NCBI RefSeq assembly: GCF_964355755.1
Contig: NC_092672.1
Coordinates: 27,286,437-27,350,436, forward strand
Direction: 5' to 3'
Source: Antedon mediterranea
Lineage: Eukaryota > Animalia > Echinodermata
Length of the DNA: 64,000 bases
The notes beneath the pieces are model-generated. The model made no database searches. It was not told the DNA's origin and worked only from the letters and a program-made list of their open reading frames with translations. Shown piece after piece: positions 8,978 through 55,571 of the stretch; positions within the stretch are counted from its first letter, which is position 1, and every line of letters starts with the position of its first letter. A program made the translations under genes and the position numbers.

Positions 8978-9049
8978 CGCCCCAACCGAGACTCGAACTC
9001 GGACCGCCTGCTTGATATGCAGATGTCCTAACCATTAGACCACTGGGGC
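8978..9049 (-). tRNA. tRNA-like gene (ATC), copy 4
   Basis: Same 72-nt sequence as copy 1. Confidence 0.6.
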
Positions 9050-9411
9050 TTTCATGGTATTGTTCGAACTCGATTGGATAGCGACTCTTTAACATTCTCG
9101 GCGTGGTACGGCGGAACAGCACTAGTCCTCAGTTGTACGCACGCGCACCAGAGATCAAATTGATACGCCCTCATCTTGCAGTATTTTTATTCACGAGGCC
9201 ACTGGGGCTTTCATGGTATTGTTCGAACTCGATTGGATAGCGACTCTTTAACATTCTCGGCGTGGTACGGCGGAACAACACTAGTCCTCAGTTGTACGCA
9301 CGCGCACCAGAGATCTCTGGTGCGCGTGCATATCAAGCAGGCGGTCCGAGTTCGAGTCTCGGTTGGGGCGACTTTTTCTCATTCTCACAGATTTCTTCAT
9401 CTTTATCGTTT

Positions 9412-13800: not shown

Positions 13801-13938
13801 TTGAAAGCCAGATCCAAGACACAAACTGACGATGACCGGAACAAAAATGAAGGGTAGTGGATGACGACAAACTACCCTGGCGTATTTTGCATAAATATTG
13901 CTTAACGGCCGACTAATACAATCCAGATTAACTTCCAT
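10830..13938 (-). CDS. Patched domain-containing protein 3-like (RND/SSD family). Exons 13938-12957 and 12505-10830, with an in-frame TGA at 11591-11589.
   Basis: SSD motifs IGIDDM and SITITSLTD, and C-terminal IGFSVDFTAH and HGLFFLPVLL. The intron is GT-AG and phase-compatible. The ORFs on both sides of the TGA are in the same frame. Confidence 0.85.
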
Positions 13939-14400
13939 TTCTGTTGAAACACAACTAAATTCACTAATTATGATACTAAACTTTCAACTCTGCCTAATTA
14001 TGCTTTTAATGTATTTAAATCCAATAAGTTGCATACGTAATTACACCCAGACACAATAAATAATACATATATTCAATATTTAGTTTCAGTAGTAACTTTG
14101 AGTCTTTGTAAATAATATTTACACCTTACTCAAGTTCCGTTAGACCAGGTAGAGGAAAATGAAGTAAATCGTCGTCTTTCATCAAATATTATGTAAACCT
14201 ACTTTTCTGTACTTGTAACACTTCAATCGGCATACTTTTGAACACAAATCATGAAGTTCATCGGATTTCAGAAATCACCTAAACAAATTCCTGCACAAAA
14301 TGCAGACACGACCATCTTATAGTGAAAAAAAAAACACTTTTGCGACGAACGTACCAAGATAATTGGTACGTTTGTCGCAAAAGTTTGTCATGTCATGATC

Positions 14401-17400: not shown

Positions 17401-17794
17401 TTATCTCTTATTTGGGGTTATCTTTTCTTTCATTGTATGATTATTATTAAATATTACATAATTGTATTTGCATTTAATTCATTTTTTTTGTTTTTTAATT
17501 TAATATTGCATTGTAATAAGGATCACGGTGAGACAAGTGTACCAACTTCTAATTTATGTATGTTTGACTGCACGCTCTTGTAATTCATTCGGGTAGAACG
17601 TTTTCTTCTTCTTTTTTTTTTTCTGGGTGGGGGGGGGGGGGGGGGGTTATTTGTTGTTTCATTGTATGATTAATTTATTACATATTATTACATAATTGTA
17701 CTGTATTTGCATTTAATTCATTTTTAAAAATTTAATATTGTATTGTAATAAGGGTCAAGATGAGACAAGTACCAACTTCTAATCTTTATCCTAA

Positions 17795-18220
17795 TACTGT
17801 ACTGTCTGTCCTTCTCTACGGGTCATCGACATGGACCCTAACTAAGAAACTTGAAAACACTCTAAACGGAACATATACTAGGATGCTACGAGCCGTTCTT
17901 AACGTTTCGTGGCAAGAGCACCTCTCGAACGCTCAGCTATATGGGAATCTTCGCAAGATCACCGATGTTATCAAAGAAAGAAGAGTCCGCTTTGTTGGAC
18001 ACTCTTTCCGCAACAAAAGTGAACTGATAAGCGAACTTATGCTCTGGATGCCATCACATGGGACAAGAAGACCAGGCAGGCCCCCAAAATCATTCATTGA
18101 CCAAAGTTGCGGACTCCGGCCATAAAATTGAAGAGCTACCAGGAGCAATGATGAACAGAGACGGCTGGAAATAAGTAGTTAAAAGAATCCGAGCAAGCTC
18201 GACGCAGTAGTAGGAGTAGT
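17795..18220 (+). mobile_element. 5'-truncated RTE-clade LINE 3' end
   Basis: VLLYGSSTWTLTK..YTRMLRAVLNVSW..RFVGH..RRPGRP translation followed by a short (TAG)n-like tail. Confidence 0.8.
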
Positions 18221-20501: not shown

Positions 20502-23500
20502 TTAAACATTTTCCTTTTCTGTAAAAATTTCAAATTTAGCAGAGAGACGAGTTCCTGTCGATCCCAGGCTGTTTTGTCGTTTGCGGAATTCACCACTGTT
20601 GCGATCCAACCTGACGTATGTACGTGTTTTGTTGGTGAACACCGGCGAGTCGCTATGATGATTACGGGTTGCTAAGGGCGAGCGTTGTTGGCCCTGCGAT
20701 AATTCTTGGATCTTCTTTTTGTTGATTTTCTTCAAGCTTGGGCGGTTTGTCTTGGCTTTTTTTAGTAACTCTATAGTGTACAACATTTTAAAAACATTAC
20801 AAAATATCCCCGAGATAGATATATTAGGAAATATAATAATAATAATAATAAATATAATAAAAAAAAAAAATAGGACTTGTATTGGACGTAAAAAAACTGA
20901 TTACTGTATTTACAGTAAGCATTTTTGTGAAGAGGCGCCATTCCTATCACATTTCAGTAATTTTCAACAGTGAGTAGAATCCCTCCTTTGTTGGGTCTTC
21001 TTAAGCTCTGTCTACACTATCACACTTTGTGACAAAAAAATGTGATGTGCCCATATATTGACATGATGATGGCATATCACTACCATATTTGGTCATATCA
21101 CTACCATATTTGGTCATATCACTACCATATTTGGGTACGCCACACCTTTTTGTTCAGTGTAGATAGAGCTTTAGAGGGGTTCTACTGTATTTATATTGAA
21201 ATTAAAGGTGTAAAACGATTTTGAAAAAAAAAAAAATATATTTATAATTTTCTGCAATAATTGTAACTTTGTTTTCCCCCACCCCCATGTTTTTTCATTG
21301 ATTAAACAAACTAGAGTAGAATACTGACCATTTTTGTCTGTCTGTTCGTCCCTATAAATGACATCCTTCTTGGTGTTAGTCCTCTCCAGTGTCGCCAACT
21401 CGTCATCGTATTCAGGAGTTGAGATTTGTTTAAAACCCTCTGTAATCGCTGCTATTTCTTTATTTAGGCTAACCACAGTTGTTTGTACTGTATCATTTGT
21501 TACTTCAATTGTTGGAGGAGATGGCGTCTGCTTTACGTTAAAAACGAATGTGTCTGTATTGTCCGATTCTAAAAAAAAAGAGAAAAACAATATAATTATT
21601 ATCAATTTTCATGAAATGTTGTCTAAAATTCAATACAATGTCAATTTTCTTTTAAAAAATTTGAAGCAATTAAAACAATATCTGAAAATATTTTAATTTT
21701 GTTTGTAAATCAATGAAAATGTTTGTAATATTATGGTTAATGATTTGATAAATTTATTTCTTTTGATATACGCATTAAAAGAATGATATATGAGATTTTA
21801 TTATTCTCTTCTTTCTGGATTAAGGAATGACATTGCATCATTTCAAATCAAAATGAAAGAACAATAAAGACCATTATTGAAAAGAATAAGGCAAGTTAAG
21901 TAGGTCGCCTGGTTGAGGAATTCATTGTGGTATACCAGAACACCACTAAAATTAATTAAATGAAATAGAGGACAAGGTAAAGACAGGGTCAAAATATATT
22001 CCATATTTCAGCTTTGATCAGGTCACAAGAGGTCAATATATATGATCAATTACATTTTTTCCCATTTCGTTTTGCAGGCAATTTTTACAATCTCAATACA
22101 GGGAACACCTCTAATAAGGGGACACTTTTCTCAATGAAACAAGAAATATGTTTTATTAAGACTACTTCAGGGACACCCCTATTACAGAGATGCCTTGTTG
22201 GGTCCTGAAGGTGTCTTTAATACTGTATTCTGATAGGTGTATTATAAATGTTCGGCAAGGAATATTTGTAATCATTCAATTAGCTAAACGCTATTATAAA
22301 ATGCATAATAATAATTTTTACAGATTAAAAAAACATTAAAACATAATTTGTGGATTTTCTAATACATTTGACAGTTTAAGGAAATTTGAAGTAGGAATAA
22401 TATTTTGGCTTAAATAATTTAAATGAATATTTTAAGATTCCAACCTTTTGTGTTGCAATTAAAACCTTGTACATGGTATTAATGTTAGGAATTGAAATTT
22501 GAACTTTACTTCCTTTTACTAAAACCAACTTTTCCACAGGAAGAGGAAGTGAAAATAAAACATTTTATTTGTGGTTGATTACAATTTACTGTAGGTAGGA
22601 TTATAATTCTTCAGTAAGTAAGTTGGTATAGGAACAATATTTAATTATTATGATGAAAAGAGTTTCATTTTACAAAGATGGAAACAGTTTGGAAAACCCC
22701 ATTTTCACAGACAATAAAGATTGTAAAATTTCCCTTTTATACAAGAAAAAGGTCACCCTAAAAACATCAATAGTAAACATCTTGAGAAAATAAATACTGT
22801 AGGCCTAATAATCTTGAAAATACTTTAATTGAGATCGAAACCAGAGGAACATGTTTTCACTAATACTATAATGCTATTTTCATATTAAATTTAAAATGGT
22901 TAAGTAATAGTATTCAGTAAAGAAAATTCACACTATTTTCCGTCGTCAGCGTTCCAAGATGTAAATGACAACTTTTAGTTTTGGCACCAAATTAGCTACG
23001 GTATACAGAAGAACTGTAAAGTAAAGCCACTCATCATCACACAAATAAATTGAAACAGTCATGTGAAACTAACAAAAAAATGTTTGTTTTATTTGGCCTA
23101 AACTAAACTTAAAGTTTTCCCTAAATTTGTATACTGAAAACTATGTAGGCCTACACTCTTAATTGTCTGGAAATAAAAAATAGTAGTATAGCATGCTTTG
23201 GCCTTGATATTACATTTTATCAGACAAAAAAAGTGTACCTCCTTGAACTTAAAAAGGAATATGGTTTAAATATCACATGCTAGAACAAGTGAAGAGGCCA
23301 CTTTAAGTTCATTTCATTGAGAACGCAGACAAATAAGATTGATCTCTGGCATACAGGAAGCGACAGTAGTGATTGCGACACCGCAGGATGATCCCTCTTT
23401 GAGTGCTCTTGTCGAATTTCATCACGTTTTTTTTTAAGCGACAATATACTGTAGGGTACTAGTGTTTTATCATGTGTATTAGTTAGTAGTTAGTGTACAA

Positions 23501-25503
23501 AGCAAAGTAACAGTACTAAGTTGTACACCCAAACCGGCACTAATGCAGTTTCGTAGCCACCCCTTAACAATAACATACTCAAAATTGTTGAATAGAGGTT
23601 TGGTAATCAAAGAAGAGAGATGATGAGTTTGTGTTACTTCACACTGGTACAGTACATTGTTTTTTTTTAGGGTATAAAAATAAAAGTGCTCCTTGTACAG
23701 TATCTAAGCGCAATTTTGTATCACACACAACCCTAAAACCTTTTCAGAAATTTTGTAAGTCTACTTTTGTTACCCTTGCATTCTATATAAAAAAATTCTT
23801 CAATTAAGTGAAAATAAAATTTAATAGTACTAGCCACATGATTTGACATTGCAAAATCCTCATGTGATACAGTGGTGGTGAAACAAACTGTATATTGTTT
23901 CAATTGGTTTTTAAACTAATTAAACAAGTTTTCATTATTATCCTATGTTATTAATAATATTGTATTCACTTTCAAATCCTTTGCTTCTCATGGTCATGTG
24001 TCATGAAGTTATTTAAAGAAACAGTCATAATTTTTCAATAGTTCCTTGAATGAACAATGTTGAGCAATCTACTGTATCTAGGCCTACAAGTATAAATCTC
24101 TGTCTACACTATCAAATTTGATGTGACAAAAAATGTGATGTGCCCATAGGGAAATGATGATGTCATATCACTACCATATTTGAGTATTACACTTACAGTA
24201 TCTCTATCATATTTAGACACATTACCCCTTTTTTGTCAAACTTATTTTGATAGTGTAGACTGAGCTTAACAGTTAACTGTTTATTTTAACAGTACTGGTT
24301 TTAACGACTGCCATATCCACACCCAAGAAAAAGAAATGTACTAAATGGTCAATTTAATTAGTAATAATAATATATTTCATATCTGTTGTGAGACTTTTAA
24401 GTTACATTACAGTATGACTAAAAATTGATTTTTTTTATAAAACTATCCCTTCAATCAATCCTATTTTCAGTACTTAATTCAAATTAATTTTAATTTTTAA
24501 ATACTGTAATAATAAATTATGTTTAATCCCAAACTTGATTAAACCAATAGACTGTGCAAAATATCAAACAAGTGAGTAACCACATGTTACTGTGTACCAT
24601 ACTAACTACTGTACAAATATTTGAAAGTTTTGAATCATTTTAGTATTTTAAACTGAATTGATTTTCTAGAAAGTTGGTTAACCACAGGTACTGTATGGAA
24701 ATCACCACCAGTAGAAATGAACACTGAATCCTTGTACTGTTTTAATGTAGAGTTTATGACTCACACAAACAGGTTGTACAATTCATTTAGTCACCCACAC
24801 CACACACAAATCAATGAATCAATTATTTACTCACCTTACTGTGATTGTAATACAAATTAGGTCATGTTTAAACAATTATAATGCTATTATGAAGTACAGA
24901 TGGTATATCATTCACAGAAAATAATAGTAATCATTGTAAAAAAAGAGGTACTGTACAGTGAGTCTATCAATATCAAGAAGTTACAACAAAGTAATACAGA
25001 GTATATAATGGCAATGGACGATAAGAAAATAATAAAAAAAAAAAAAACAATGAGAACTATTGTTTATAAATTTGTTTTATGAAAAGAATTTTAGTTTGTT
25101 TTAAAGTTTCGTGTAAATGATGTATGAAAACAAATTGATTAAAATGAAAAAAAAAAAAGATGATAATTTACTAACTGTAGTAGTTTTCCTTACCTTTCTC
25201 TGTTGAATATTTTAAAAATATTGGCGTTCTTGCGACAGTTTCACAGGGTGATCTTGGATCACTCAGAGGAATAGGGGTACGTGGACAATTCGGTGATCGA
25301 GGATCAACAAAGTAGTCTGCTTTTTTGACTGGAGTTGAACACAAATCAACTTCACTGCCAACACGTGCATTGTCCATCCCATTCTCTACAGAAATCGGTG
25401 TTCTGTCGATTCCCGTTGTCGGTGATCTTGGATCCCTAAGTAACTTCCGATGCGTATTCGGTGTTTGATTACCTTCGATACCCTTGCTTTCTAAAGCACC
25501 CAT
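20502..25503 (-). CDS. CDCA3: Cell division cycle-associated protein 3 (TOME-1)-like. Exons 25503-25194, 21568-21329 and 20770-20502.
   Basis: MG start, three DPRSP..RTPI motifs, an RSPL motif and a C-terminal KEN box (EKENV*). Both introns are GT-AG and phase 1. It lies next to USP5, as in vertebrates. Confidence 0.85.
21004..21170. mobile_element. MITE with AGCTCTGTCTACACTATC TIRs and TTA/TAA target (PIF/Harbinger-like)
   Basis: TTA on both sides. Other copies at about 18943-19103, 24098-24268, 59983-60070 (partial) and 60414-60556. Confidence 0.7.
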
Positions 25504-26954
25504 GATGTTAATTCTTGCCGGTAACGATGTTCGTCTTGATATGAGATTTGTTTGGTTTTGAGCGTACTGTATTTGTAACCTGTCTGCCGTTGTATTCCGT
25601 CGTTTACTTTGTCTTCGTTTTCTTACTAAAGAGTTACAGAAACAAAGAACCAATGGTTTATTGGACTTTAATGATAGTTCATGCTGTTTGCCGCCCTCCT
25701 CAGTACCACATTTATCGCAGAAGTTTATTGGAGCCACTAAGGCTTCGTTCTGTGTTAAAATAACCATATTTTTGTGAAATAAATTGATGTTTCTGAAGAC
25801 CAAATAATTAACAGTGGGTTAACCTGATGTAGTCACTATTACGAATGAATAATCCTTGCTCACTCTAGTTAAACAATGAAGGCTTATCCTTCACGATTCA
25901 GTGACTGTCAGCTGGTAGCATTACTCAATGAACAGGATACTAACCAATCACAAAGTCTGATGGGAGTGGCTAAACCAAATAAGGGCAATGAGATCATCAA
26001 TCAATGTTTATTCAAGCGTAGGATTCTAATAAGACTTGTTTGGTGGTATAAACCACCTTATTCCTGGTAATGTATAAATTAATACATGGATATAAATATA
26101 CATTTTCTTAACAATAACATTAATGTATCCAATGATTTTAAGGAAATCAACATTTTTGGGACAGCTTAATTTAATGTGTCAAATTACATGGCACACACAC
26201 ATTAATACATTTATGTTTATAATTAACTGGTATTCAAACTTTATTCTTTTATTTAGGTTCGAAAAAGTACAATAAATAAATCATCCGTAAAAAGCTTTGT
26301 TTATTTTGGAGATCAGAATCAATATCAGTATAAAACATGTCATGAACAACTATTTTCCTTATATTTAAAAATTTAAAAAAAATTGTTCACCTCTTAGAAA
26401 TGTACTAATGGTCCATTTAAATAATTTAATTAGTAATATTATTTCATGTCGATAACGACGATTGTGAAGATCATGGAGATGGAGATCAAAATCAATATAC
26501 TAACTGTAGTATAAAATATGTCATGAACAACTGTTTTTCCTATATTTAAAAATTGTAAAAAAATTGTTCACCTCTTAAAATACACCGAAAAAATACCAGT
26601 GTATACCGATTGTCACAGTCACCGTTTTTCCGCAGTACAATAGCAGCGGATTGACAGACGATCGACCACTTTATGGGGCTCAACGCCTACAGTAAGACGA
26701 TCGGGCCAATATAATTAGACGATCAGGTCAATAATTAGATGATCGGCCCATTGTAAAAATAAAGGAAAAAAGATCAGGTACACGAAAACGAATGGATTTA
26801 TAATTGTTCACCATAAAATATATTAAGGGTGTTCTTTCCACGAGTTTGTGATACAAATGTAATAAACTATGTACATTTCGATAAGTACTCATTTATTTGT
26901 TTTGCCGAGAACTCAATTATAAACTATAATGGAACACATTTACAAACGACACAC

Positions 26955-43600: not shown

Positions 43601-46600
43601 ACCCTTCCAGGCCATGGATGCATCAGACCAAACTCTGTCAAGCCCAACTTTGCTAATCTACTGTCAAAGAAAAAAATACCATTCTGTTAAGTCTTGCTAC
43701 AGTGTGGCTTTCTCCAGGTTATTACTTGTTTTTATTTTAATCAGAATACAAGTTGGTCGCATTTATAAGTCACATGGGAACTTCAACATCATGTGGTCAC
43801 TACGTCTGTCATATCAAGAAAGATGGAAGGTTAGTAATTATACACAACACATTGTTGACTTATAATAGTAGGTTTCTTTTCGACTTTCCTAATGTTATCT
43901 TTAACTTTTTTACTTATGAATACAGGGACAATGTTTTTGTTTATCTTGTGACTTAGTTGGCATAGTTGTCGCTTGACGGAGTTCGCAGATTTCTGATCTT
44001 TGAATGGCAGGATGATTCGCAGGATGATTCAAAGATCAGAAATCTGCGAACTCCGTCAATTATGTTATTGTGTATAAATTTAAATGTGACTTGTGCGATG
44101 CAAGTTATGTTGGATATACATGCCGACACCTCTACCAACGCATTGTTGAACATAGTAGATGCTTACATGCCGAAACTTTCCCTCTTACCACTCTACCCGT
44201 CAAATGATGCTTTAGACGGGTACTCTAACCAGGTTTTGCCTGAGACTAATCGATCTAATCGCATTAAACATCAAAAGCCTAGGCCGCGCGACCTTACGAA
44301 GTGGCAATAAATCACTGGGATAATGTGTCCGATCAAATTTCTCCCTCATGGTCAAATGAAGTGACTGAATGTTTGAAAATGTGTTTTTCTATAAAATAAT
44401 AATAATACCATTTGTTTAACCATGAATAAAAAGAAAAAGTAATATAACAGCAATTTCAAATCGTAAAAATTGATTAATTCTACGCGAAGTTAGAATTCGT
44501 TGAAAAATCACGATTTCCAGGCTGTGGAGAAAATCGAGCCGGCCAGAGACGACACACGAGGTCTTGGCGTATGAATATTTTACAAGCGTGGTACAGTGAT
44601 TTGTTTTTGAATTATCATATAATATTTATGATAAAATGTGTTTAAAAACAATACTGTATGTAGTTTTTAATACCTTTAAGATGTATTAAAATATAATATA
44701 GAACAATTAATTGTGTTTATAGTAATATACGTCACTACTTTATTGTAGCGTAGGTATTATGTTGGTACAAAAACAATGTCGTCATCATATAAACAAACAA
44801 ACGAGGGGTCGCGATGAGCTTTCCATGTACAGTATTTTGAAAATAACGCCGAAAGCCGGCCAAGACGATGGTCATTTATGTTTTGGTTCGCCTAGGGGTA
44901 GGACATGAGTTGCTAATTTTTAAAAACAACAATGGCAGAAAATATAAGTGTTGGCAGTCGAATACAAGCCATCGACATTTTAGGAAGATGGGAAAACGGA
45001 CGCGTACTCTCTTGTGAAGTGCCTAGGCCTAGTACAAGTAGTAGTAGCAGCAGCACTACTACTACGCTAGTGTCATTTACAGGCTGGTCATCAAAATGGA
45101 ACAGAGAGGTGTTACCCCATCAAATAAGAAAACCAGTTGAACCATTCGCTAAACGTAAGTAAATACGATCGTTCAATATTGATTTATTACATTGCACAAC
45201 GGATTTTCCCAAGAAAATATGTTTTTGCCAAGGCTAGGCCTAGTAGTAATTGTGCTTGTGAGGGTTTGTGAGTCGAAGCATCCATATAAAATGACATGCT
45301 AATTTAGGCTAAGCCTAGCCCTAGCCTAGGTATACTCACTCGCTCGAGTATGTGTGGCGTAAACAAAAACTTATTTAACACATTTTGTTATTAATATTTG
45401 TAACTTAAAACACTTTCTAATCCGATATTTAACCTAGGCCTAGTAGGGGTTCCACGTATGGACTACCATGTATCTCCGTTAGATGTTCGTAGGCTACGAT
45501 ATGATGGATTAAAATAGTACATAATTACAATCGACCTTAGCCAACAAGGCCGGCCAAGCCTATAATACCGATCGTGCATTTCATGCAGAGAAGTCGTTTC
45601 GTCCTAGTTAGATAAGATAGAGTGACTATTGACATGAAGAGATATTTTTTAGAGAAGGCTTTGGTATTTGTTTAGTTATTATTAAATAATATAATAAATT
45701 TATGATATCTTTAATATATTCTTTATCTTAATGTACAATTAGCGACACCCAATAATAGCTACTACAGTAACTCTCTTATCTCACAAGTGTTTATAATTTT
45801 TATGGAAATGGAATTCTGCCTGTTCATGTTTTTTAATATTTAATTTAGGCATAAAATTAGTGCAAATAAATTGTTTATAATATTAATTTGTATTTTAATT
45901 TCTCAGGGCTACCAGAAAATTCTAGACGAATTTGCCAAAAATCTAGTAAACAACAACTTTCTCTTCTACAAACTTTGACATCTGAGGACAAAGTTATTGT
46001 ACATGGAACGTCGGTACAAGTAAAAGAAGTGGATAAGTTCACGCATTCTTTAATTGTGGTTACTGAAGGTGGTGAATGCCAAAAGATTAACATAACGGAT
46101 ATAGAAATAGAAAATGAAAAGGATGCAACAGGTATTTATTTTTTGTCATTAAAATTGGATTGTTTTCAATTTTTCTGTAATTCAGAAAATGAATTTTAAT
46201 TATGCACTTTTTTTTCTTATTATTTTTGTGTTTTATAATATTGGAATTTGCTGATAAAAATAAATGTGTGTTTTACAGTTTCAATATCCTGTTGATATAT
46301 TTGTAACTTAAATAATTATTTTACTGCAAAAATGGTTAGGCAACCACAACATAATTGCTTACATACAGTATTATGTAATATCTATTAAACAATAGATCAA
46401 AGAGTTAATTCTTGATTTGATGTAAAATCAATTACTGTCAATCTAAGACTATTTTGCAATGTTTACCCTACATAAGCAAAGTTCAACCCACTGATAATAA
46501 TGTGATTTTGCATTCAATCATTATTGAATTTACTGGTACATTGTTTATTGGAAGGGAAGTAGTGAATAACTATTATTTTGTTGTCCTAATATGCTTGCTT

Positions 46601-49600
46601 GTGCTAAATTAATTTGTGTAGAAAGTTTAATTTTGAAGCATAATGGCTTAAATTGTTTGGATAATAATTGTCTGAATGACTAGACTAATAAGAATTCTGT
46701 AACCATTATTTAAATAATATAATTTATACATGTATTATATAAAATATTAAAAGTTTGATAATTAAAAAAGCAAACTAACATTTTAAATATTTTATTTTAG
46801 ACACACAGGTTGTCCGGAAAACAAAGAAACAAAAGACTTGTGCAGTTGTTTATGAGCCACAGAATAAAGATGTTCAAACAGATTTATGGGTAAGTCTTAA
46901 ACAGAAATATATTTTTTTAATAATTGTAATTATTCCTGATGATGATAAAATAAAGATCAAAACATTTTAATTAAGAATATTAGGATTAATATTATTATGC
47001 ACTTTTTATACATTATTTTTTTGTTTTATAATATTAGAATTTGCTGATAAAAAAATAAATGTGTGTATTACAGTTTCAATATCCTGTTAATAATTATATT
47101 TGTAACTTAAATAATTATTTTACTGCAAAAATCATGACATAATTGCTTACATATTACTGTATGTAATATCTATTAAACAATAGATCAAAGAGTTAAGTCT
47201 TGATTTAAAAAATCAATTACTGTCAATCTAAGACTAATTTGCAATGTTTACCCTACATAAGCAAAGGTCAATCCACCGATAATAATGGATGTGCATTGGA
47301 AGGAAGTAAACTGTTATTTTAAAATTGTACATAAATGAGTGATTTTTTTTCTTGCTTTTGTCCAGTTACCAGCATCTGTGGAGTCCAATGACTCATGCGT
47401 TGATGAAATGCTTGGATTTGAAGTTGGGGAAATATACAAGGTAAAATTACTTTTAAGAATATATAATCTGCTCTAAAAAAATTGAAAATAAGCCTCAAAA
47501 TTGCAAAAATGTAAAAGTGTGCTTGTTTAGAAATAACTAGAAATTACCATTACATTAACAAAATATAATTTTTTTTTTTCAGATGAAGGGTAGTGACACA
47601 ATTTTAGCAATAACAAAACTGGATCTATTCAACAGGCAAATCCAAGGTAATCTAATAATCAATGATGTGCTGGATCATCAATCAACCGTCATTGCTCCAG
47701 TTGACAGGTTAGAGAAAAAAGTACAACTAAATGTTTCAGCAACTGACAAACATTTTTTAAATGATGTAAAAATATCAGCAAAGCAACAAATGCTGAATAA
47801 CCTCAATAATATCAGTTATCGTATTCAGTATCGAAAGATACAAGTGACAGGTTTGCTCAAATCAGAGGTTAAAACCATTTTAAACCGAAGAATTAGAGCC
47901 ATGAATAATTTTAATTTAGGTCCTATTACGCCTGATGTTGACTGTAAAATGTTTAATTTTGATTTTGCCAAGGGAAATACATCTGTTAAGTATAACTACA
48001 AAAACCAAAATCTTAATGCTCTAGATGAAGTTCTGGGAAGTTCCTGGGACATAGAATCATTTGATAATGGTGTAATGTATGTAACCTGTTTATCAATACA
48101 CTTAAATAAAAGAAAATACCTTGTAGGTTCAGTGGCTGTTGCCCATCATCATGGTCCTTTAGCACCAAATAGCTTTTACAGGGATCAACTAAGTCACCAT
48201 ATGACAGTTGTAAGTAAGTGTGTGGCAGAATAAACTCTAAAATAAAGCAATCTATCAAAAATCTTTTTATTTATGAAACTGGTGTAGATTGGCTGCCAAC
48301 ACTTATAATTTCTGTCATGTTGTGCTTAGTTTCATAATATAATGGATAAGGTTATACATTTTTCTAATGGATTGTTATGCAAGAAACACCATCATGGTGC
48401 TTCTTGTAGTGTTGATTGCCTTTTAGAAATCTTTTATTGGGGTGTATTTCCATACACAAAAAAATTGTTTTTTAATCATCCTCTTCTTCTTAGGTTATTA
48501 AGTGTTTGTCAATTAAGAAAAACGTTTCCACTATCCGCTCCACTACCTTGTAATATTCGTGAGCCAGTATGGGATTGGCTAGTAGACAATTTGCCAAATG
48601 GATTTGGACCAAAAGGAACAAATCATGCCGAAATCATTCAGGCCTTCGATTGTTTAACTGATACATCATTTCTCACAACATTTGCAAGCAAACAACAATG
48701 TCAAAATTGTAGTAGTACAATTAACATTACCTCGCAATGCAATCCAGTTTTTCTTTATTCTCAAAGTTTTAATGAAAAGTATCCGAGACAGTTCAGTAGT
48801 TGTGTTGAGAAGCTAATAAAGCAATCTTTATCACATCGGGTAAGAGATTGCTTTAACTGTAATTCATGTAACAAACAAATCCTAGAACTTAAAGGACAGT
48901 GTCTAATGCCTGAATTCCTTATACTAAATCTGGGACTAAAGGAATGGCAAAACTGCCAAAAGCCACCAGTAGTTGTGCCGGAGACAACAAATATACACGG
49001 TTCTAATTACATTTTAACATCAGCAGTTCAAATGGAACCAGGCCACTTCATCTCAATATGTAAAACAACTGCAGGATATTCTGTTATCAATGATATGTCT
49101 AAATCTATTGTAACTTACAATACCTTCGCAGCTGCGGCAAATAGAAATCCACAAATTCTTGGTACCTCTGAACCTATTGCTAGTTCAGATGGCATTGGTC
49201 AAAAGGGAGGAATTCATATGCTTGTTTATGCAAAGCTTTCTACAAATCACCTACCTGCTTTTGTATTTAAACCTAAAAATAAAGTAGAAGAAAATTTATC
49301 AGGGAATGTACAAAAAGATAAAGGCCATATGACAGATCTAAACGATAATTTACAATCAACAAATGACTCTATTACTAGCCCATTATCTGATACATGCACT
49401 CCTAAAATTGTGAAAAAAAGAAGTATTAGTCCAACAAGTCAAAAAACAAACATACAAACAAAAAAAGTTAAGCAAGGAAAAGAAAACAAAAATGTGTGTA
49501 GCAGCACTCCTCTATCTACTAGGATGAGCAAACCAGCAAAAAGAGACATTTTAAAAGACATTAAAGTGCCCGTCTTTGACAGTGTCGCTAACATTAAAGT

Positions 49601-52600
49601 TGATAAAATTAAAAAATCTTCTCCAAAGTTGATTGGCATACAAATTCCAAAAAACAGCATTGTAGAAATTGGCTTTAAAACAATTTGTTCGAAAGACTTG
49701 CCATTCACACTGTATAAGTCTCGTGTATTTTTTAGTTGTCCAGAAACCTTTCAGTTGTTAGGACAAACAAAGGAAATATCCCGTCAGGGATATGCTAAAC
49801 ATGACAGAATATTGGAGGCAAATGGGCTCAATCCAACCGAGTTGTTTCTTTCACATGGACGACAGAGAAAATGGATAGACAAAGAAGCATTAATGGTAAT
49901 TTTAAAGCATTGCTCTTTCAAAAGGCAGAATCTAATTAATCTGATTAAGACAGAGTTACAAGATAAATTTAAAAAGACAAGATTTTCGGAAAGAAATGAA
50001 TCGGTCACTGTGAACTGTAACACTAAAAGTTCCCTGTCAGATGAAAAAATAGTGTTTCATAATTGTACAAGTAATACACAACAAAACAAGGCAAGTAACG
50101 TAGCAAAAATGTCTGAAAAAAATGAATCGGTCACTGTGAACTGTAACACCAAAAGTTCCCTATTAGATGATTCTGAAAAAATAATGTACGATAATTGTAC
50201 AAGTAATAGTATTACGCAACAAACTACTACCAGTATTGGAAAAAAGCATTCTAAAAAAAATGACGCAACTGTGAACTCTAAAACTAGAAGTTCCCTATTA
50301 GATGAAAAAATAATGTATGATAATTGTGCAAGTAATAGTAATACGCAACAAGGTACTCGTAACGTGGGAGAAATGTCCCCAGAAAAAGACTCCGTCACTG
50401 TGACCTCAAAAACCAAAATTCCACTAAAGGCTGAAGTTGAAAAGTGTCAAGTGAACACCAAAAACAAGCCGGATATATCTGAAACAAATTATTCTGTTAC
50501 TGAAAAATCAAAAAATAAATGTACAATAACAGAAAACCAAACTTGTAACTTACCAAATATGACAAAAATAAATAGTCCTATAATTACAAGAGTCTCAGAC
50601 GATAAAATCTGCCAGATGAAAAATACCGAGGTTATAAATTGCTCAAAAAATGTTGATATTACAACAAAAGAAATCAAGACCAGTAGATTGCCAAATGTGT
50701 CAGAAAAAAATTTCTCATCTACTTGGCCTATAAATGTTGGGACATTAATCATTAATGGAAATAATGTGAGATATGCATTAAACATGGATAAAAATGATAT
50801 TTATTTATCAACAGATGACATATTTTCTGCTGTAGGTTTACTTAAGCATGTCAAAAAGGAAGGCTTTAAAACAATTGATCGACATCTTCTAAATGAAGGG
50901 CTTGACCCAAAATCTTGTTTTACACTCAATGGTATAAAACGAAATTATATTACTGTACATGCTGTTTACGTTTTAATATCATCCTTCTCAAGTAAAACAA
51001 TTTCTGTTGACAAAAAAAAGTCACTGTGCACTGATTTAGTACTAACATTACAAAATGTTGTAATTAAACTGTTAAACAGCAATAAGCCAAAAGAAAATGA
51101 TGGTATGCTGCAAATTAACAGCAAAGAGAAACTACTGGAGTGCTTGTCGAGCATGATCAGTTGTACGAAAGCTAAAAATCACCAACAATTTACAGCTGAT
51201 GATATTACTACATCACTGTATAGAGCAACAATTCAATCTAAAAAAGGTTCTAAAATAGTTAGAGAAACTGTAACAAATTTGTATTCAGCAATAAATCCTC
51301 TATATGCTGAAGATATAATTCATTGCCGTGAAAACTTCAGTGGTGTAAGATTGTTTCATAGGCTACGCAAATTACTTCCTGGCATTTTACCATCTAACAG
51401 AAATATTTTGGAAACATCTGCAAAATTAAATCAAAGCATGAGAGCAGTTTTATGTCCTCGTAGAACATCAACAGGATGGTACATTGATCCTGTTCGATTG
51501 GTTGAAATATTATTATTTAGATATCCTTTTTTAGAAAATAAATTGCACATCAAAATACAAGGTGATGCAGCAAAGATGGGTGGTCGTCATGTAACATATA
51601 TAGGGATATCCTTTATCAACCATGAATTTAAACTACAAAATCTTTCTTATCAAAACCCCAAAGAGATATATCCTGTCGCATTGTTTTATGAAAGCGATAG
51701 CCGTGATAATTTAGAGGAAAATTTGAAACACCCCTTCATGAATCGGTTATTAAATATTTCACATCCAAATTCACAATTTTACTTGGGTGGCGATGAAATG
51801 TTCATCCAAAGTATTCTTGATGATGAGTCCGTATTAGGACCAACCACAGAATCCGGATGGAACATCTACCACAAATGTGATAAACAATCAAAAAAAGATG
51901 TGTCAAACAATGGAATGAGAACGGATTTAGATGTCCCTATGGATCGTGTACATCCATCTAACCTACTGTCAGATATACCATTAGCTCGGGTATTTCCATG
52001 TATTCTACACTGGATCTCGCGATGCACAGAAAAACTTCTAACAATTGAGGTGGAACAAATTATCTCACTAGGAAATAAGTTATCGCAAGGCAACAAAAAC
52101 AGTACAAATTTTGAAGACCTCTTACGGAATTTAGAATCTAATATTACTTTAAGAGGGTTGCCTAATTTTCGAATTTCTCTAGATAAAAATGGGAAGGTAG
52201 AGAAAATATCTCTTAATAAAGATCATGCATTAACAATATTATGTCCAAACCCTCCTGGAAAACAAACTTACCAACATGTGTTAGAAAATGTAGTTCCTAA
52301 AAATAAAATTACTAATCCTCTACCATTCAATATTAGACAGTTTTTGAAATTAGATTATGATTTTACAGAACTTGAGTGCGTGAAAATGATTTGGCAAAGT
52401 TTGTACACGATGTTTGAAATTTTACAAAAGGAACCCAAGCCACAAATTAAACAAGATTGTATAGAAGGAACTTTAAAGCCTTGTGATTATGTATGGGGAT
52501 ATACAGAGCTACAAAAAAGTACATACAAATTTCATGCAGAAAGGTTGTACCAGCTTGTAACGATCCGTTATGGCTGGAAAAACATTACACCATACATGAT

Positions 52601-55571
52601 TAAATTCATTGACTATGGCCTAAGATTTATGTCAAATGATGGTGATTTTCCGTTGTCAAGATTTTCCACTGAAGGAGGCGAGCATAGCCATTACGACAGG
52701 AATTGCTTTTATTTTCACCATACTACAAGGAATGGAGGAAAAAGTAATTTTGACCCTAATTTTGCTCAATTTAATACAACATGGAAACGGTTATCTTATG
52801 AAATTTTAAATTGTACCAATGACGAGGCCAAAAAATCTTTTAAAGAGTATGTTGCTATGCATGAAGCAGCATCTAAAATACAGCGTTGTTTTAGATTATT
52901 TAATGTAAAAAACAACTTGAAAAAATTAGGTTTTATTCAAAGTCCGCAAACAAAACAAGAAAAGTCAAATAACTTATCATGTCTATCTAATTTGGTGGCT
53001 AAGAACACACAAGAAGTTGATTGTCAGAATAAAATCTTTTCTGGCAAGACTTTCATTTTAATTGGAAATGTTCCTAAGTATAAAGGAGAAAAAATGACAC
53101 AGCCAAAAATAACCAAATTAATTTTAGATAATGGTGGAAAAGTACGGAAAAGTCTCCCCGGAACTGCCAAGGGAAATTCCACAAAAAAGTTCATAATTTT
53201 AGCTACTCTCTCAGAAGGCAAAAATGTTGCCAGTGTTATAAAGAATGCTCTGAGAAAACATTGTAAAGTAGTAGACTATAGCTATGTGTACAAGTCAATA
53301 GACTTGGATAATTTAGAAATGTTTTCTGCTCATCAATCCCCACTTATTAAACAAATAAAGTCTAAAATTTCTGTTCTACCAACTCTTAACCAAGTACATT
53401 TTAAAAAGAATTTTCGAATGATTTCAATGCTAAAAGGGCCACGTAAAACCAAACCTTGTAGGAAAGATGTGTTGATGACCTGTGCAAAAAATGTTGCAGT
53501 GTTTTATGGTAATTTAAAAAGGAAAGAATTTTGCAAGCTTAACAAAAACTTAACGTTCAGAGAATCTCGTGGCATATTTGTAAAGCATATTAAAGAGTAC
53601 TCTACATTAAATATTGTAGAAAAAGATAGGTACGTACAAATGTGGTTAAATAAGAAAAATGAAAAAAATAACCAGGCAAAAAGAATACAGGCACTTAAAG
53701 CTTACAATTGCCCACAAACACCACATTTTAAAGTTGTTGGAAACTGGAAAAAAACATCATCATAATTGTACACAATATAGTCAAACATTTAAATTTTAAG
53801 TCAAATGTTGATATGAATCACTTTCAAAGATAAATCATTTTTCTGTGCAGTACTTCAATGAGAGTACAGTATTCAATGATTTCTAAAATCAAATTTGGTT
53901 ACATTTACCATACTGTATATCAATGGCTTTAAGAATATAATGGGGTACTGAGTGGAAATGAGTTTCTTTAAAGGCAAGCTGATAAATATTGTGTTAGTGT
54001 CTTTTTTGTATGTAACAGTTATATATTTAAAGTAAATTTACAGTAGGCCGTACTTGCTTTTTGTACCGTGTTAATGCAATGGATAATGCCTTTAAACTGG
54101 AATAATGGTTATGATGGTTGATTATTTATTTTTCATTGATTTTAATATTATACAGTAGTACAGTTTTTTTTAATCATTTTGTTGTACAGCTATTGTGTAA
54201 TGTGTAAATAAACAGTAGTTCATTTTTTTTAATTTGACAGTAGGCCTACAGTTTTATGTATCCCATAAATAAATCCTATTACTGATTTCTAATATAAATC
54301 AAATGTTGTTATATCAAATCAATGACTTTACCCAATAATGGGATACACAGTTCATCATAGTGGTATTGAATTTCTTTAAAGGCAAGCTGATAAATATTGT
54401 TTTGTTTTTTGTATGTAACAGTTATAAAGTAAATTTACAGTATGAAGCTTTTTTACCATGTTAATGGATAATGCCTTTAAACTGGACATAGTAATTGTTA
54501 TGGTTGATTATTTTCCAGTGACTTTAATGTTTTTACAGGTTTTTATCATGTTGTTGTACAGCTATTGTGTAATAGGGAGTAAAAAGAATTTTCTTTTTTT
54601 AAATTTGACAGTACAGTTTTATGCATCCTATTTACTTGTTAACTGATAAAATAAATACAAACAACATAAAATAGTGAATTTTAGATTTGTTTCTTAAAAA
54701 AATAATTTGCATGGTATTTACTTTGCAGTAGTAGGCCTAATTGGTGAAAGCTACTCAAATATTTCTATTAGATGATGCATTTCATTTGTAAAAAATATGT
54801 TGTTTAATGAATAAATATTTGGATATTATATTCGTTTCAGTTCTATTTTGTTGAGTGTTTTGGTTGCTGCCTTTTTTTTAATGTTCAGTAAAAAAGATCA
54901 CAGGAAATACCTAGATAGCTTACATGCTTTAATCCATTTAGCATTTAATGAGGTCACATGCTGAGTAAAGTCATTAGGCTGTCACTATCAAGGTCAGGCG
55001 AAACCTGGTTCAAAAGTTAGAAATTTGGTAAGAGGGAAAGTTTCCTCATGTAATAGGACAGCATTTGAAGGATCATAACGTGATTGTTAATCCAAGTAAA
55101 ATTAATTCATGTTTTAGTATACTTAGGAAATGCAAAAACAAATTTGACTGTCTTATCTATGAAATGTTGTATATCAGACAATTAAAACCTAGTCTGAATA
55201 AACAAAGTGACTCTGTAAAAGCTAAGCTTTTCATTTGACAGGATGTTAGACAATAGGTCTTTTGTTATTTAAACTTTGACCCTTGGCTTGTGCTACTTAA
55301 TTAGTTGTTGTTTTATATTTTATTCATTGGACTTGATAATGACCCCATGATGGAGTCGAAACGTCGTTCTCTTTTAAGCGTTATTTTTATATTATGTATT
55401 TACAATAAACGTACCCTCATTATTATTACATTATGTATTGAATAATTATATATTGAATAATTTTTAAATTATTTATTTATTAGGTGGGTGTTATATAACG
55501 ACAACAAAGTAGCATTGTCTGAGAAGCTTCCATATGATCTTGGCTATTTATACTTGTACCAACGTCACTGA
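28637..55571 (+). CDS. USP5: Ubiquitin carboxyl-terminal hydrolase 5 (USP5/USP13 family), 21 exons: 28637-28735, 29995-30120, 30703-30760, 31173-31294, 31956-32050, 32659-32894, 33417-33511, 33990-34126, 37587-37643, 38122-38193, 39235-39319, 39421-39543, 39626-39779, 40312-40492, 40745-40833, 41235-41339, 42120-42263, 42501-42637, 43192-43318, 43745-43829, 55484-55571
   Basis: ZnF-UBP ([27 protein letters not shown]), Cys box NLGNS|[15 protein letters not shown], two UBA domains (LVSMGF, IESMGF), and His box [20 protein letters not shown]|WVLYND. Splice junctions are GT-AG. Confidence 0.93.
28995..29851. mobile_element. MITE/foldback element with about 105-bp TIRs in USP5 intron 1
   Basis: 28995-29103 is the near-perfect reverse complement of about 29733-29851. 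Confidence 0.8.
34293..35897. mobile_element. Non-autonomous Kolobok-type DNA element with TTAA target duplication
   Basis: TTAA|AGGGGGATTCTGGGT ... ACCCGGAACCCCCCT|TTAA. No internal transposase ORF. Confidence 0.65.
35953..37551 (+). mobile_element. Helentron/DINE-like element (family C)
   Basis: Sub-terminal inverted repeats TTGGTTATCCGC / GCGGATAACCAA, 3' hairpin ACTCGTCAAAGTGACGAGT, and (ATC)n near the 5' end. Confidence 0.7.
38770..39115. mobile_element. TTAA-flanked MITE with AGATGTATTGTCCCC TIRs (Kolobok-type)
   Basis: TTAA on both sides. Another full copy at 55664-55952, and single ends at about 16845 and 62600. Confidence 0.75.
41395..42060. repeat. Degenerate GT-rich intronic repeat
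   Basis: Recurrent GGTATGGTACAAGATACTGGTG and ATGGTTGTGGTGAG motifs. Confidence 0.6.
43865..44165 (+). mobile_element. Penelope-like element, 5' part (GIY-YIG N-half, with an inverted upstream segment)
   Basis: [28 protein letters not shown] at about 44070-44155. 43865-44005 on the minus strand encodes the preceding [22 protein letters not shown]. Confidence 0.8.
44932..48233 (+). CDS. Transposon gene A, about 420 aa, N-terminal Tudor/chromo-barrel-like domain. Exons 44932-45154, 45907-46131, 46801-46889, 47366-47440, 47583-48233.
   Basis: All introns are GT-AG with phases 1,1,0,0, giving one open frame. The N-terminus reads [31 protein letters not shown]. Confidence 0.7.
48342..53765 (+). 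CDS. Transposon gene B, 1807 aa: USP-like protease, two Bro-N-like repeats, RAG1/Transib-like DDE transposase, IQ, BRCT and HMG-box-like domains
   Basis: Uninterrupted 5.4-kb ORF. Protease motifs GASCSVDC (C22), GHF (H235), NDM (D251). Transposase motifs IKIQGD (D1075), YLGGDE (D1151), CILH (H1223), TPYM, FSTEGGE (E1447). Tail motifs [10 protein letters not shown] and [19 protein letters not shown]. Confidence 0.8.
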   Translation: MDKVIHFSNGLLCKKHHHGASCSVDCLLEIFYWGVFPYTKKLFFNHPLLLRLLSVCQLRKTFPLSAPLPCNIREPVWDWLVDNLPNGFGPKGTNHAEIIQAFDCLTDTSFLTTFASKQQCQNCSSTINITSQCNPVFLYSQSFNEKYPRQFSSCVEKLIKQSLSHRVRDCFNCNSCNKQILELKGQCLMPEFLILNLGLKEWQNCQKPPVVVPETTNIHGSNYILTSAVQMEPGHFISICKTTAGYSVINDMSKSIVTYNTFAAAANRNPQILGTSEPIASSDGIGQKGGIHMLVYAKLSTNHLPAFVFKPKNKVEENLSGNVQKDKGHMTDLNDNLQSTNDSITSPLSDTCTPKIVKKRSISPTSQKTNIQTKKVKQGKENKNVCSSTPLSTRMSKPAKRDILKDIKVPVFDSVANIKVDKIKKSSPKLIGIQIPKNSIVEIGFKTICSKDLPFTLYKSRVFFSCPETFQLLGQTKEISRQGYAKHDRILEANGLNPTELFLSHGRQRKWIDKEALMVILKHCSFKRQNLINLIKTELQDKFKKTRFSERNESVTVNCNTKSSLSDEKIVFHNCTSNTQQNKASNVAKMSEKNESVTVNCNTKSSLLDDSEKIMYDNCTSNSITQQTTTSIGKKHSKKNDATVNSKTRSSLLDEKIMYDNCASNSNTQQGTRNVGEMSPEKDSVTVTSKTKIPLKAEVEKCQVNTKNKPDISETNYSVTEKSKNKCTITENQTCNLPNMTKINSPIITRVSDDKICQMKNTEVINCSKNVDITTKEIKTSRLPNVSEKNFSSTWPINVGTLIINGNNVRYALNMDKNDIYLSTDDIFSAVGLLKHVKKEGFKTIDRHLLNEGLDPKSCFTLNGIKRNYITVHAVYVLISSFSSKTISVDKKKSLCTDLVLTLQNVVIKLLNSNKPKENDGMLQINSKEKLLECLSSMISCTKAKNHQQFTADDITTSLYRATIQSKKGSKIVRETVTNLYSAINPLYAEDIIHCRENFSGVRLFHRLRKLLPGILPSNRNILETSAKLNQSMRAVLCPRRTSTGWYIDPVRLVEILLFRYPFLENKLHIKIQGDAAKMGGRHVTYIGISFINHEFKLQNLSYQNPKEIYPVALFYESDSRDNLEENLKHPFMNRLLNISHPNSQFYLGGDEMFIQSILDDESVLGPTTESGWNIYHKCDKQSKKDVSNNGMRTDLDVPMDRVHPSNLLSDIPLARVFPCILHWISRCTEKLLTIEVEQIISLGNKLSQGNKNSTNFEDLLRNLESNITLRGLPNFRISLDKNGKVEKISLNKDHALTILCPNPPGKQTYQHVLENVVPKNKITNPLPFNIRQFLKLDYDFTELECVKMIWQSLYTMFEILQKEPKPQIKQDCIEGTLKPCDYVWGYTELQKSTYKFHAERLYQLVTIRYGWKNITPYMIKFIDYGLRFMSNDGDFPLSRFSTEGGEHSHYDRNCFYFHHTTRNGGKSNFDPNFAQFNTTWKRLSYEILNCTNDEAKKSFKEYVAMHEAASKIQRCFRLFNVKNNLKKLGFIQSPQTKQEKSNNLSCLSNLVAKNTQEVDCQNKIFSGKTFILIGNVPKYKGEKMTQPKITKLILDNGGKVRKSLPGTAKGNSTKKFIILATLSEGKNVASVIKNALRKHCKVVDYSYVYKSIDLDNLEMFSAHQSPLIKQIKSKISVLPTLNQVHFKKNFRMISMLKGPRKTKPCRKDVLMTCAKNVAVFYGNLKRKEFCKLNKNLTFRESRGIFVKHIKEYSTLNIVEKDRYVQMWLNKKNEKNNQAKRIQALKAYNCPQTPHFKVVGNWKKTSS
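55051..55430 (+). mobile_element. Penelope-like element, 3' part (GIY-YIG C-half and 3' UTR)
   Basis: [45 protein letters not shown], followed by the hammerhead-like TTGATAATGACCCCATGATGGAGTCGAAACG. Confidence 0.8.

Follow-up and report, generated by a model that had tools for sequence, protein, structure and literature searches.

The window analysed here is a stretch of 64,000 nucleotides from the echinoderm Antedon mediterranea (RefSeq assembly GCF_964355755.1, contig NC_092672.1, forward-strand positions 27,286,437 to 27,350,436). In its right-hand part lies a unit bounded by terminal inverted repeats (TIRs) that holds two genes in tandem, called gene A and gene B below (Table 1). An earlier note, made from the letters alone, had described a 10.9-kb unit with TIRs and a TA duplication, carrying a spliced gene of about 420 codons and an unbroken open reading frame (ORF) of 1807 codons with a RAG1-like catalytic core; the analysis below bears out each of these points. 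We have little doubt that this is a real, apparently intact two-gene transposon, and we consider it probable that it is a TIR element with a predicted RAG1-fold transposase that likely moves by cut-and-paste, protein A being a likely chromatin-binding helper.

Table 1. Features of the element and its surroundings (positions in the window; aa, residues of the protein concerned).
Feature	Position	Strand	Remarks
Whole element	44166-55050		10,885 bp, TIR-bounded, TA on either side
Left TIR	44166-44190	+	25 bp, CATG start
Right TIR	55026-55050	-	25 bp, CATG end
TA duplication, left copy	44164-44165	+	From junction analysis and end comparison
TA duplication, right copy	55051-55052	+	From junction analysis and end comparison
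Gene A	44932-48233	+	420 aa, five-exon model
Protein A layout			N-terminal Tudor/Agenet-like domain, more SH3-like segments, conserved C-terminal domain of unknown fold
Stem 5' arm	44926-44965	+	Spans gene A start codon; predicted
AATAAA	48241-48246	+	Just after gene A stop, before antisense arm; possible poly(A) signal, predicted
Stem 3' (antisense) arm	48284-48323	+	Ends about 20 nt upstream of gene B ATG; predicted
Gene B	48342-53765	+	Single exon, 1807 aa, unbroken transposase ORF
USP-fold cysteine protease	48342-49256	+	aa 1-305; C22, H235, N250/D251, four zinc-finger Cys; predicted
Repeat domain, copy 1	49662-49976	+	aa 441-545, possibly DNA-binding
Repeat domain, copy 2	50733-51062	+	aa 798-907
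RAG1-fold DDE core	51159-52841	+	About aa 940-1500; D1075, D1151, E1447; C1220-x-x-H1223; no C(2)C, no H(3-4)H; predicted fold
BRCT	53031-53315	+	aa 1564-1658
HMG-box-like tail	53439-53666	+	Approximate limits; weak evidence
GIY-YIG (Penelope-like) frame, first 35 codons	44061-44165	+	Pfam GIY-YIG E 0.01, below cut-off
GIY-YIG frame, other 61 codons	55053-55238	+	From joined-frame analysis; alone without Pfam match
Host USP5/13-like gene	32540-55570	+	UBP zinc finger, catalytic boxes, two UBA-like exons

Taken together with the flanking TTA and TAA, the inverted arms run from 44163 to 44190 and from 55026 to 55053 and are 93% complementary over 28 nt; the TIRs themselves agree at 23 of 25 positions, against 18-20 of 25 for the best of 30 shuffles. 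The unit shares its strand with the host USP5/13-like gene and lies in that gene's last intron, between the His-box exon, which ends at 43829 (Pfam UCH, E 6e-7), and the final exon, about 0.4 kb past the element. There it interrupts a GIY-YIG frame, which reopens over 96 codons when the element and one TA are deleted in silico. With the number of bases dropped at the junction varied from 0 to 5, the frame was open with 2 or 5 and closed with 0, 1, 3 or 4; since the 5-base option costs three further host bases, a 2-bp duplication is the simplest reading. Relatives of the element were found in metagenomes (loci labelled L001 to L015 and so on) and as proteins (P0115, P0127), and over eight ends from five loci the outward flank directly before the initial C reads TTA in 8/8, ATTA in 7/8 and CATTA in 5/8. 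A TA duplication within a preferred CAT-TA-ATG palindrome fits all ends, and the sole alternative is an equivalent reading without duplication. The element starts themselves vary across the family (CATG, CGTG, CAGA and CGGT), with CA in the window and in L011/L012 and CG in L001 and L015.

The sequence into which the transposon inserted, at 43831-44165 and 55053-55238, is a decayed fragment that we take to be Penelope-like from its motif; it consists, in order, of a minus-strand pre-endonuclease piece, a perfect 33-bp inverted repeat (43973-44005 and 44027-44059) and the GIY-YIG frame, in which it is cut. An internal duplication (53951-54266 and 54359-54631, 75%) follows gene B, and no Rfam match was found across 43900-55300.

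The catalytic core of protein B was modelled with AlphaFold over aa 937-1543, with a mean pLDDT of 87.5. In Foldseek the first match of this model is RAG1 (E 2e-8, TM 0.52), followed by HzTransib (3e-7), BbRAG1L (3e-5) and the P transposase (3e-4), and VIA-align also places RAG1 at the top (Z 20.2, 419 aligned residues, rmsd 3.6), ahead of BbRAG1L (19.1), Transib (12.5), P (11.5) and Hermes (7.7); sequence identity to these structural matches is 10-12%. In the model, D1075 lies on the first strand, D1151 after a later strand and E1447 in a helix, which is what an RNase H core would lead one to expect; D1151 and E1447 are 296 residues apart, with a large helical insertion between them, and an E-x-x-E motif accompanies the D-D-E triad. 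An alignment of 85 cores was reduced to 58 by dropping rows more than 90% identical. D1075 is kept in 55 of these (the other three have gaps), while D1151 and E1447 are kept in all 58; the C/DxxH signature begins with C in 49 rows and D in 9, and H1223 is present in 57. By contrast, CxxC occurs in 0/58 and H(3-4)H in 2/58, both away from the homologous position, where the zinc motifs were likened to RAG1 residues by position and by the known RAG1 sequence, not by residue-level alignment. A tree of the same 58 rows, midpoint-rooted and built with no outgroup, describes the family from within and is silent on its placement among superfamilies. No transposase family came up in scans of Pfam, NCBIfam or PHROGs, and PDB searches by single sequence and by profile gave no transposase match; atlas matches to RAG1-related clusters, at 0.84-0.88, fall under 0.9 and serve as leads only. 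Given both structural rankings, we regard it as highly likely that the modelled core has the RAG1 fold, and the model suggests a transposase family that works like RAG and Transib yet falls outside their membership. A reading as a P element (the right end of the unit starts CATGAGGAAA) was rejected: P elements make an 8-bp duplication, none of that length is found here, and P scored well under RAG1.

Around this core, protein B carries several accessory domains. The model of the N-terminal region, with pLDDT mostly 80-97, matches the USP fold in Foldseek (E 9e-9) and at a structural Z of 14-16, including USP12 at 14.9. The 31 rows whose N-terminus is complete, which count self and near-identical members, all have C22 and H235, and at position 250 there is D in 29 and N in 2. 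The best fold matches mix enzymes for ubiquitin, SUMO and ISG15 with the inactive domain of PAN2. The predicted fold and the conserved triad support a ubiquitin-family protease as the N-terminal domain. In P0115, from Glandiceps, a ubiquitin domain with a Gly-Gly end (residues 164-245, Pfam E 7.5e-9) stands directly before the USP domain, as does a 2A-like ribosome-skipping motif at about position 1719 of L008; either would free the N-terminus of the protease.

Among 52 proteins of at least 1200 aa, the 105-residue repeat domain is present twice in 35, once in 12, three times in 3 and not at all in 2. Its sole structural match, the N-terminal domain of granulovirus Orf22 (rank 49, Z 6.5, 90 residues aligned, rmsd 3.7), is in the chance range; a likeness to Bro-N/KilA-N is presumed. 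Between the two copies, at 49969-50443, a unit of about 43 codons is repeated four times, in frame and in degenerate form, and relatives have unrelated low-complexity repeats at this place. The BRCT domain of protein B is below the Pfam cut-off (E 1.5e-4), many relatives are above it, and the best PDB match of the family profile is the BRCT of DNA ligase IV (E 1.8e-4).

The structure of gene A is a gene model from genomic sequence alone, with exons at 44932-45154, 45907-46131, 46801-46889, 47366-47440 and 47583-48233, all of them stop-free and bounded by GT-AG; exons 1, 2 and 5 match the L001 homolog in the same order. Four aromatic positions of the first domain are kept in 4/4 copies, and the domain matches the Tudor domain of Pcl at E 0.025; an atlas match of the L012 copy to Agenet/BAH, at 0.81, is below 0.9 and a lead only. 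No conserved Cys/His pattern was seen in the C-terminal part of five gene A copies, and Pfam scans gave neither a PHD nor a kelch match for gene A, with weak Royal-family matches in place of the latter. From this Royal-family likeness and the kept aromatics, protein A is likely a methyl-lysine reader.

Gene A also accompanies the transposase elsewhere, in four distinct relatives: it adjoins it upstream on the same strand in L001, downstream on the same strand in L006 and convergently in L011/L012, and in P0127, a Holothuria gene model, A and B are merged. Leave-one-out profiles of gene A recover the copies of the window, L006 and L012 (E 2e-6 to 1e-21). For the C-terminal part, the leave-one-out profile finds the L012 copy in the correct frame (E 1.4e-10), and the remaining two C-terminal profiles were built with an out-of-frame L012 row. 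A word-based search with the last exon gave no match among proteins of 118-378 aa. An in-frame splice from gene A exon 1 to gene B was set aside, as the phases, judged by eye, seem compatible in L001 but not in the window. Introns 2 and 3 of gene A share an internal duplication (46189-46514 and 46985-47297, 86%).

The family to which the element belongs is large. Two word-based searches with core aa 940-1540 returned relatives that are 39-56% identical, 25 of them shorter and 27 near-length, and a metagenome scan yielded 20 loci from 55 pattern matches; relatives with matching ends range from 29 to 56% identity. With a profile, 817 clusters came up at E <=0.001 and 216 at E <=1e-30; as the profile spans BRCT and tail, weak matches may be single domains. 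Named hosts are Holothuria leucospilota (eight gene models), Anneissia japonica and Glandiceps talaboti, with annotations as hypothetical, uncharacterized or BRCT-containing proteins and no others. No relatives were found among 100 pattern matches in viral contigs or among 21 in prokaryote genomes.

Several relatives bear on structure and mobility. L012 (796-10064) is a complete distant element with an intron-containing transposase, a BRCT domain, an HMG-like tail and an intronless gene A of 402 aa on the strand opposite to the transposase; it may be defective, since about 600 nt of L014 seem to be missing from it. L011 is 99.8% identical to L012 over 7711 nt and diverges from six bases past the right end, and because of this departure we read it as a second insertion site. 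The contig L001, at 33% identity to B, is circularly permuted and runs in the order B C-terminal part, junction, gene A and B N-terminus; at 6369-6409 its right and left ends meet head to tail, with perfect 16-bp inverted ends facing each other across TA-5 nt-TA. The ends of this contig share a repeat, and the junction could equally be a tandem copy, an excised circle or an assembly collapse. A similar left end is present in L015. L014 lacks eight segments of L012, mostly GT-AG-edged, as a spliced transcript would, and L004 likewise lacks intron-like segments of its genomic relative L015. Seven of ten clusters checked have 3-13 members, whose long members are 93-99.8% identical on contigs of differing length, which may come from one assembly or from several.

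Three further observations concern these loci. In L001 four tandem copies of a unit of about 150 bp (11290-11820) lie between genes A and B. L011 has a second inverted pair (580-636 and 8996-9051, 84-89%) with one arm within the element and the other outside it, which is probably an unrelated small repeat. In L015 (1745-2219) the left end interrupts an ORF resembling a helicase C-terminal domain, presumably of RecQ type.

A predicted RNA stem, which the earlier note does not mention, joins the start of gene A to the sequence before gene B. In the window it comprises 37 pairs, three of them G-U, in arms of 40 nt; in L001, 6996-7033 pairs with 11931-11968 in 37 pairs, four of them G-U, the layout being shared and the sequence unrelated. 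The observed duplex energy was reached by 0/300 shuffles in either element. The ungapped cores hold six transition mismatches, each of which reads G-U, never A-C, on the sense strand, and stability favours the sense duplex (-50.6 vs -39.8 and -56.4 vs -50.5 kcal/mol for sense vs antisense), which points to pairing as RNA. The gene B ATG lies 24 nt (window) and 18 nt (L001) past the core arm. Because the AATAAA precedes the antisense arm, an mRNA of gene A only would escape the stem, and a read-through RNA would mask the gene A start; at the matching place L001 has, by eye, ATTAAA variants only, which makes such a switch speculative.

Based on these findings, we suggest a mechanism whose five parts are given in order of falling confidence. 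Protein B would bind both TIRs and excise the element with D1075, D1151 and E1447, the route likely being nick-and-hairpin as in RAG and Transib; insertion would follow in the middle of a palindromic target similar to CAT-TA-ATG, with a stagger of 2 nt. The fused HMG-like tail would likely bend the DNA, a task for which RAG relies on host HMGB1, and the BRCT domain would likely recruit or time host break repair. The USP domain, likely active, may free the transposase or nearby chromatin of ubiquitin or a ubiquitin-like tag. The Tudor-like domain of protein A would likely read methylated histones, doing with an unrelated fold the job of the RAG2 PHD finger. In tandem elements, finally, a read-through RNA may fold the sequence before gene B onto the gene A start codon and mask it, leaving the gene B start about 20 nt past the stem, so that the stem would set the ratio of A to B. 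For the protease, gene A and the stem these are roles that we infer. A bolder proposal is that the element represents a second, independent two-component RAG-type system, an undescribed animal lineage of superfamily rank with a zinc-free RAG1-fold transposase that brings its own HMG box, BRCT domain and ubiquitin-family protease, with a Tudor reader in the chromatin-targeting role of RAG2, and with an RNA stem that switches translation between A and B; as a whole we put this forward tentatively, as possible rather than probable.

A number of results weigh against parts of this picture. Kinship with RAG1 is read from predicted structure at 10-12% identity, since sequence profiles do not detect RAG1, and because the duplication has 2 bp here and 5 bp in RAG and Transib (PMC10462144), the target geometry should not simply be carried over from RAG. 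Two mismatches lie near the TIR tip, and self-comparison within the 64-kb window found no further copy of the element. Among public sequencing runs, four from one sample, possibly the source, contain 85-93% of the words sampled and three with a different organism label contain 44%, with no RNA run listed; these figures weigh neither for nor against the element. The USP domain was found in 42 of 68 proteins of at least 900 aa, near-identical members included, and the complete distant relative L012 gave no USP match; the protease is therefore not required in every lineage, and with L012 lacking it the conserved kit consists of the repeat domain, the RAG-fold core, BRCT, the HMG-like tail and gene A. 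HMG matches are weak (P0115 E 0.002, L012 E 0.018, family profile against HMGB2 E 0.016) and below Pfam cut-offs, as are all Pfam matches of the first domain of protein A, to MSL3 chromo-like, Agenet and Tudor models (E 3e-4 to 0.07). The incomplete contigs L002, L003, L008 and L015 gave no gene A. The stem is known from two elements only and is absent from the convergent element L012 (18/26).

Domesticated host genes or an immobile fossil, with inverted repeats that are leftovers or chance, would account for the lack of a second copy in the window; yet the unit breaks up a retroelement remnant within an intron and is flanked by a clean 2-bp duplication, neither frame nor any catalytic residue is damaged, and near-identical relatives occupy different sites, which makes this explanation very improbable. 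Termini one base longer (AC..GT), with duplication-free insertion between TT and AA, would give the same junction letters and the same restored host frame, TA being palindromic, and duplication-free elements exist (Spy, cited in PMC12730594). RAG-fold relatives, however, begin with C and cut in a staggered manner as far as the available texts go, and C directly follows TA in 8/8 ends, so that we hold this variant to be improbable. A more serious objection is that the element is real but its lineage already sits in Repbase or Dfam, for example as an animal branch under EnSpm, ESTA, Transib or some unclassified family with TA duplications. According to the available text of PMC12730594, ESTA already joins a TA duplication with a likeness to RAG1 in HHpred, and CMCT elements mostly have CA..TG ends, with 2-5 bp duplications; the family is large and present in annotated genomes, and Lanisha, for one, was published solely in Repbase Reports, outside the openly searchable literature. 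In the same text, though, all CMCT lineages including ESTA are stated to have C(2)C and H(3-4)H, which the present cores lack, and ESTA is known from rust fungi, its first listed family beginning with CACC; the named relatives bear only the uninformative annotations given above, and our full-text search did not find the architecture. We thus consider prior deposition unlikely, though less so than the preceding two readings.

The functions of the two accessory partners allow other interpretations. Protein A might be a regulator or anti-silencing factor acting on the chromatin or expression of the element rather than joining the transposition complex: those of its parts that can be recognised resemble chromatin readers, the stem suggests a trade-off between A and B output, and Transib transposes without a partner protein. 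Against this, gene A stays within the TIRs in tandem and convergent elements and in relatives of about 30-45% core identity, as RAG2L does with RAG1L (PMC9435367), an association compatible with either role; we regard a regulatory protein A as a genuine possibility, short of a probable one. Much the same standing applies to the view that the protease acts on SUMO or another ubiquitin-like tag, or on its own polyprotein, and is not mainly a deubiquitinase. USPL1-SUMO complexes (ranks 3, 5 and 7) and USP18 (rank 4) are among the top seven Foldseek matches, three relatives have weak Pfam matches to Peptidase_C98 (E 0.01-0.017), the ubiquitin domain of P0115 and the 2A-like motif of L008 precede the protease, and other transposases commonly carry Ulp1 SUMO proteases (PMC2836005). 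USP1, Ubp8, USP46, USP2, USP12 and USP35 score equally or higher, however, and Helitron-borne proteases, which have a different fold, were ubiquitin/NEDD8-specific on assay (PMC9741609).

These results also refine the earlier note. It had looked to TIR-bounded copies and homologs elsewhere, and these exist, with TTA before the C at 8/8 ends, the L011/L012 sites and genes A and B together in the four relatives named above. Its accessory kit stands for the USP fold and BRCT; the HMG-like tail is weak, the Tudor-like domain is weak by Pfam and consistent in 4/4 copies, and the USP domain proved not to be universal. "Chromatin-reading" draws on weak Royal-family matches and conserved aromatics and may be apt to that extent, and "ubiquitin-removing" would need widening, as the fold matches of the model also include the SUMO protease USPL1 and USP18. 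The CATG and TA ends that it took as distinguishing are present but not unique among RAG1-like elements, ESTA having TA and CMCT elements CA..TG ends (PMC12730594, in part); because of this overlap, the missing C(2)C and H(3-4)H are the sharper difference.

The antibody recombinase is known to descend from two-gene transposons of the RAG type, and the zinc motifs have so far been taken as a mark of the entire RAG/Transib/CMCT clade. If our reading is true, the partnership of a RAG1 fold with a chromatin reader arose more than once. One intact element opens to testing the role of the zinc site, the 5-bp versus 2-bp target geometry, the replacement of HMGB1 by a fused HMG box and the targets of transposon-borne ubiquitin-family proteases; a palindromic 8-bp target preference could interest tool builders.

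Elsewhere in the window, judged by eye, two long plus-strand ORFs (4021-6806) resemble NACHT/NLR-type proteins by a P-loop motif, and three minus-strand ORFs (10833-13983) have a patched-domain likeness, a stop and a frameshift apparently interrupting them. Again by eye, the stretches 1-474, 17736-18122, 21174-21608 and 25174-25818 comprise two fragments of non-LTR reverse transcriptases and two exons of a minus-strand gene rich in proline.

Among known systems, the C/DxxH signature is common to hAT, MuDR, P, Kolobok and Dada, but the structure is far nearer to RAG1 than to P or Hermes. Kolobok elements duplicate a whole TTAA and have RR..YY termini, neither of which is seen here, and the spacing of 296 residues that separates the second D from the E sets the core apart from Tc1/mariner, where it is about 34-37. 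With USP deubiquitinases, protein B shares the USP fold and a Cys-His-Asp/Asn triad in its predicted structure. Ubiquitin-family proteases are found on the transposases of Ginger1 and MuDR (Ulp1 or OTU), Helitrons (OTU or VTD) and a Trichomonas IS5-like element (peptidase C19), and the excerpted PMC2836005 and PMC9741609 describe no USP-fold domain on a RAG-fold transposase. Tudor and BRCT go unmentioned in the excerpted PMC10462144, and the architecture did not come up in the full-text literature searched (including excerpts of PMC10045372, PMC9587614 and 10.1101/2021.09.26.461848), a search that left aside Repbase, Dfam, Repbase Reports and RAG-survey supplements.

The closest likeness is to RAGL, ProtoRAG, TransibSU and AanRAGL and to vertebrate RAG1/RAG2, which give the best structure match of the core (Z 19-20) and share D-D-E with E-x-x-E. 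RAG-like transposons also have two genes within TIRs, in tandem or convergent, and their hosts include echinoderms and hemichordates; AanRAGL is a tandem with the partner gene upstream (PMC9435367). The present element differs from them in lacking C(2)C and H(3-4)H as well as CAC heptamer (RSS-like) ends, in a 2-bp TA where they duplicate 5 bp, in a Tudor-like partner without the conserved PHD cysteines, in a BRCT and HMG-like tail, and in showing no similarity at the sequence level; where the N-terminus of RAG1 is a RING ubiquitin ligase (PMC4411706), protein B has a USP protease. Transib and Chapaev share the fold (HzTransib Z 12.5, Foldseek E 3e-7) and C-initial ends, whereas here the zinc motifs are missing and the element has a TA duplication, a second gene and accessory domains amounting to 1,300 further residues. 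The CMCT clade is defined by shared C(2)C and H(3-4)H, with mostly CA..TG ends and duplications of 2-5 bp (Kojima 2025, PMC12730594, in part); the duplication size and, in the window and L011/L012, the CA..TG ends agree with this, but the shared zinc motifs do not occur. ESTA, compared by description only, has in common with our element the TA duplication, a RAG1-like transposase, chromatin-aimed cargo, a similar size (12 kb for ESTA-1_PGr) and, for the window element, CA..TG ends, but it keeps C(2)C and H(3-4)H, is described from rust fungi and carries TET/JBP. By the motifs stated for these groups, the element is outside RAGL, Transib and ESTA, and although a deposited family may exist in Repbase or Dfam, we lean towards regarding its lineage as undescribed.

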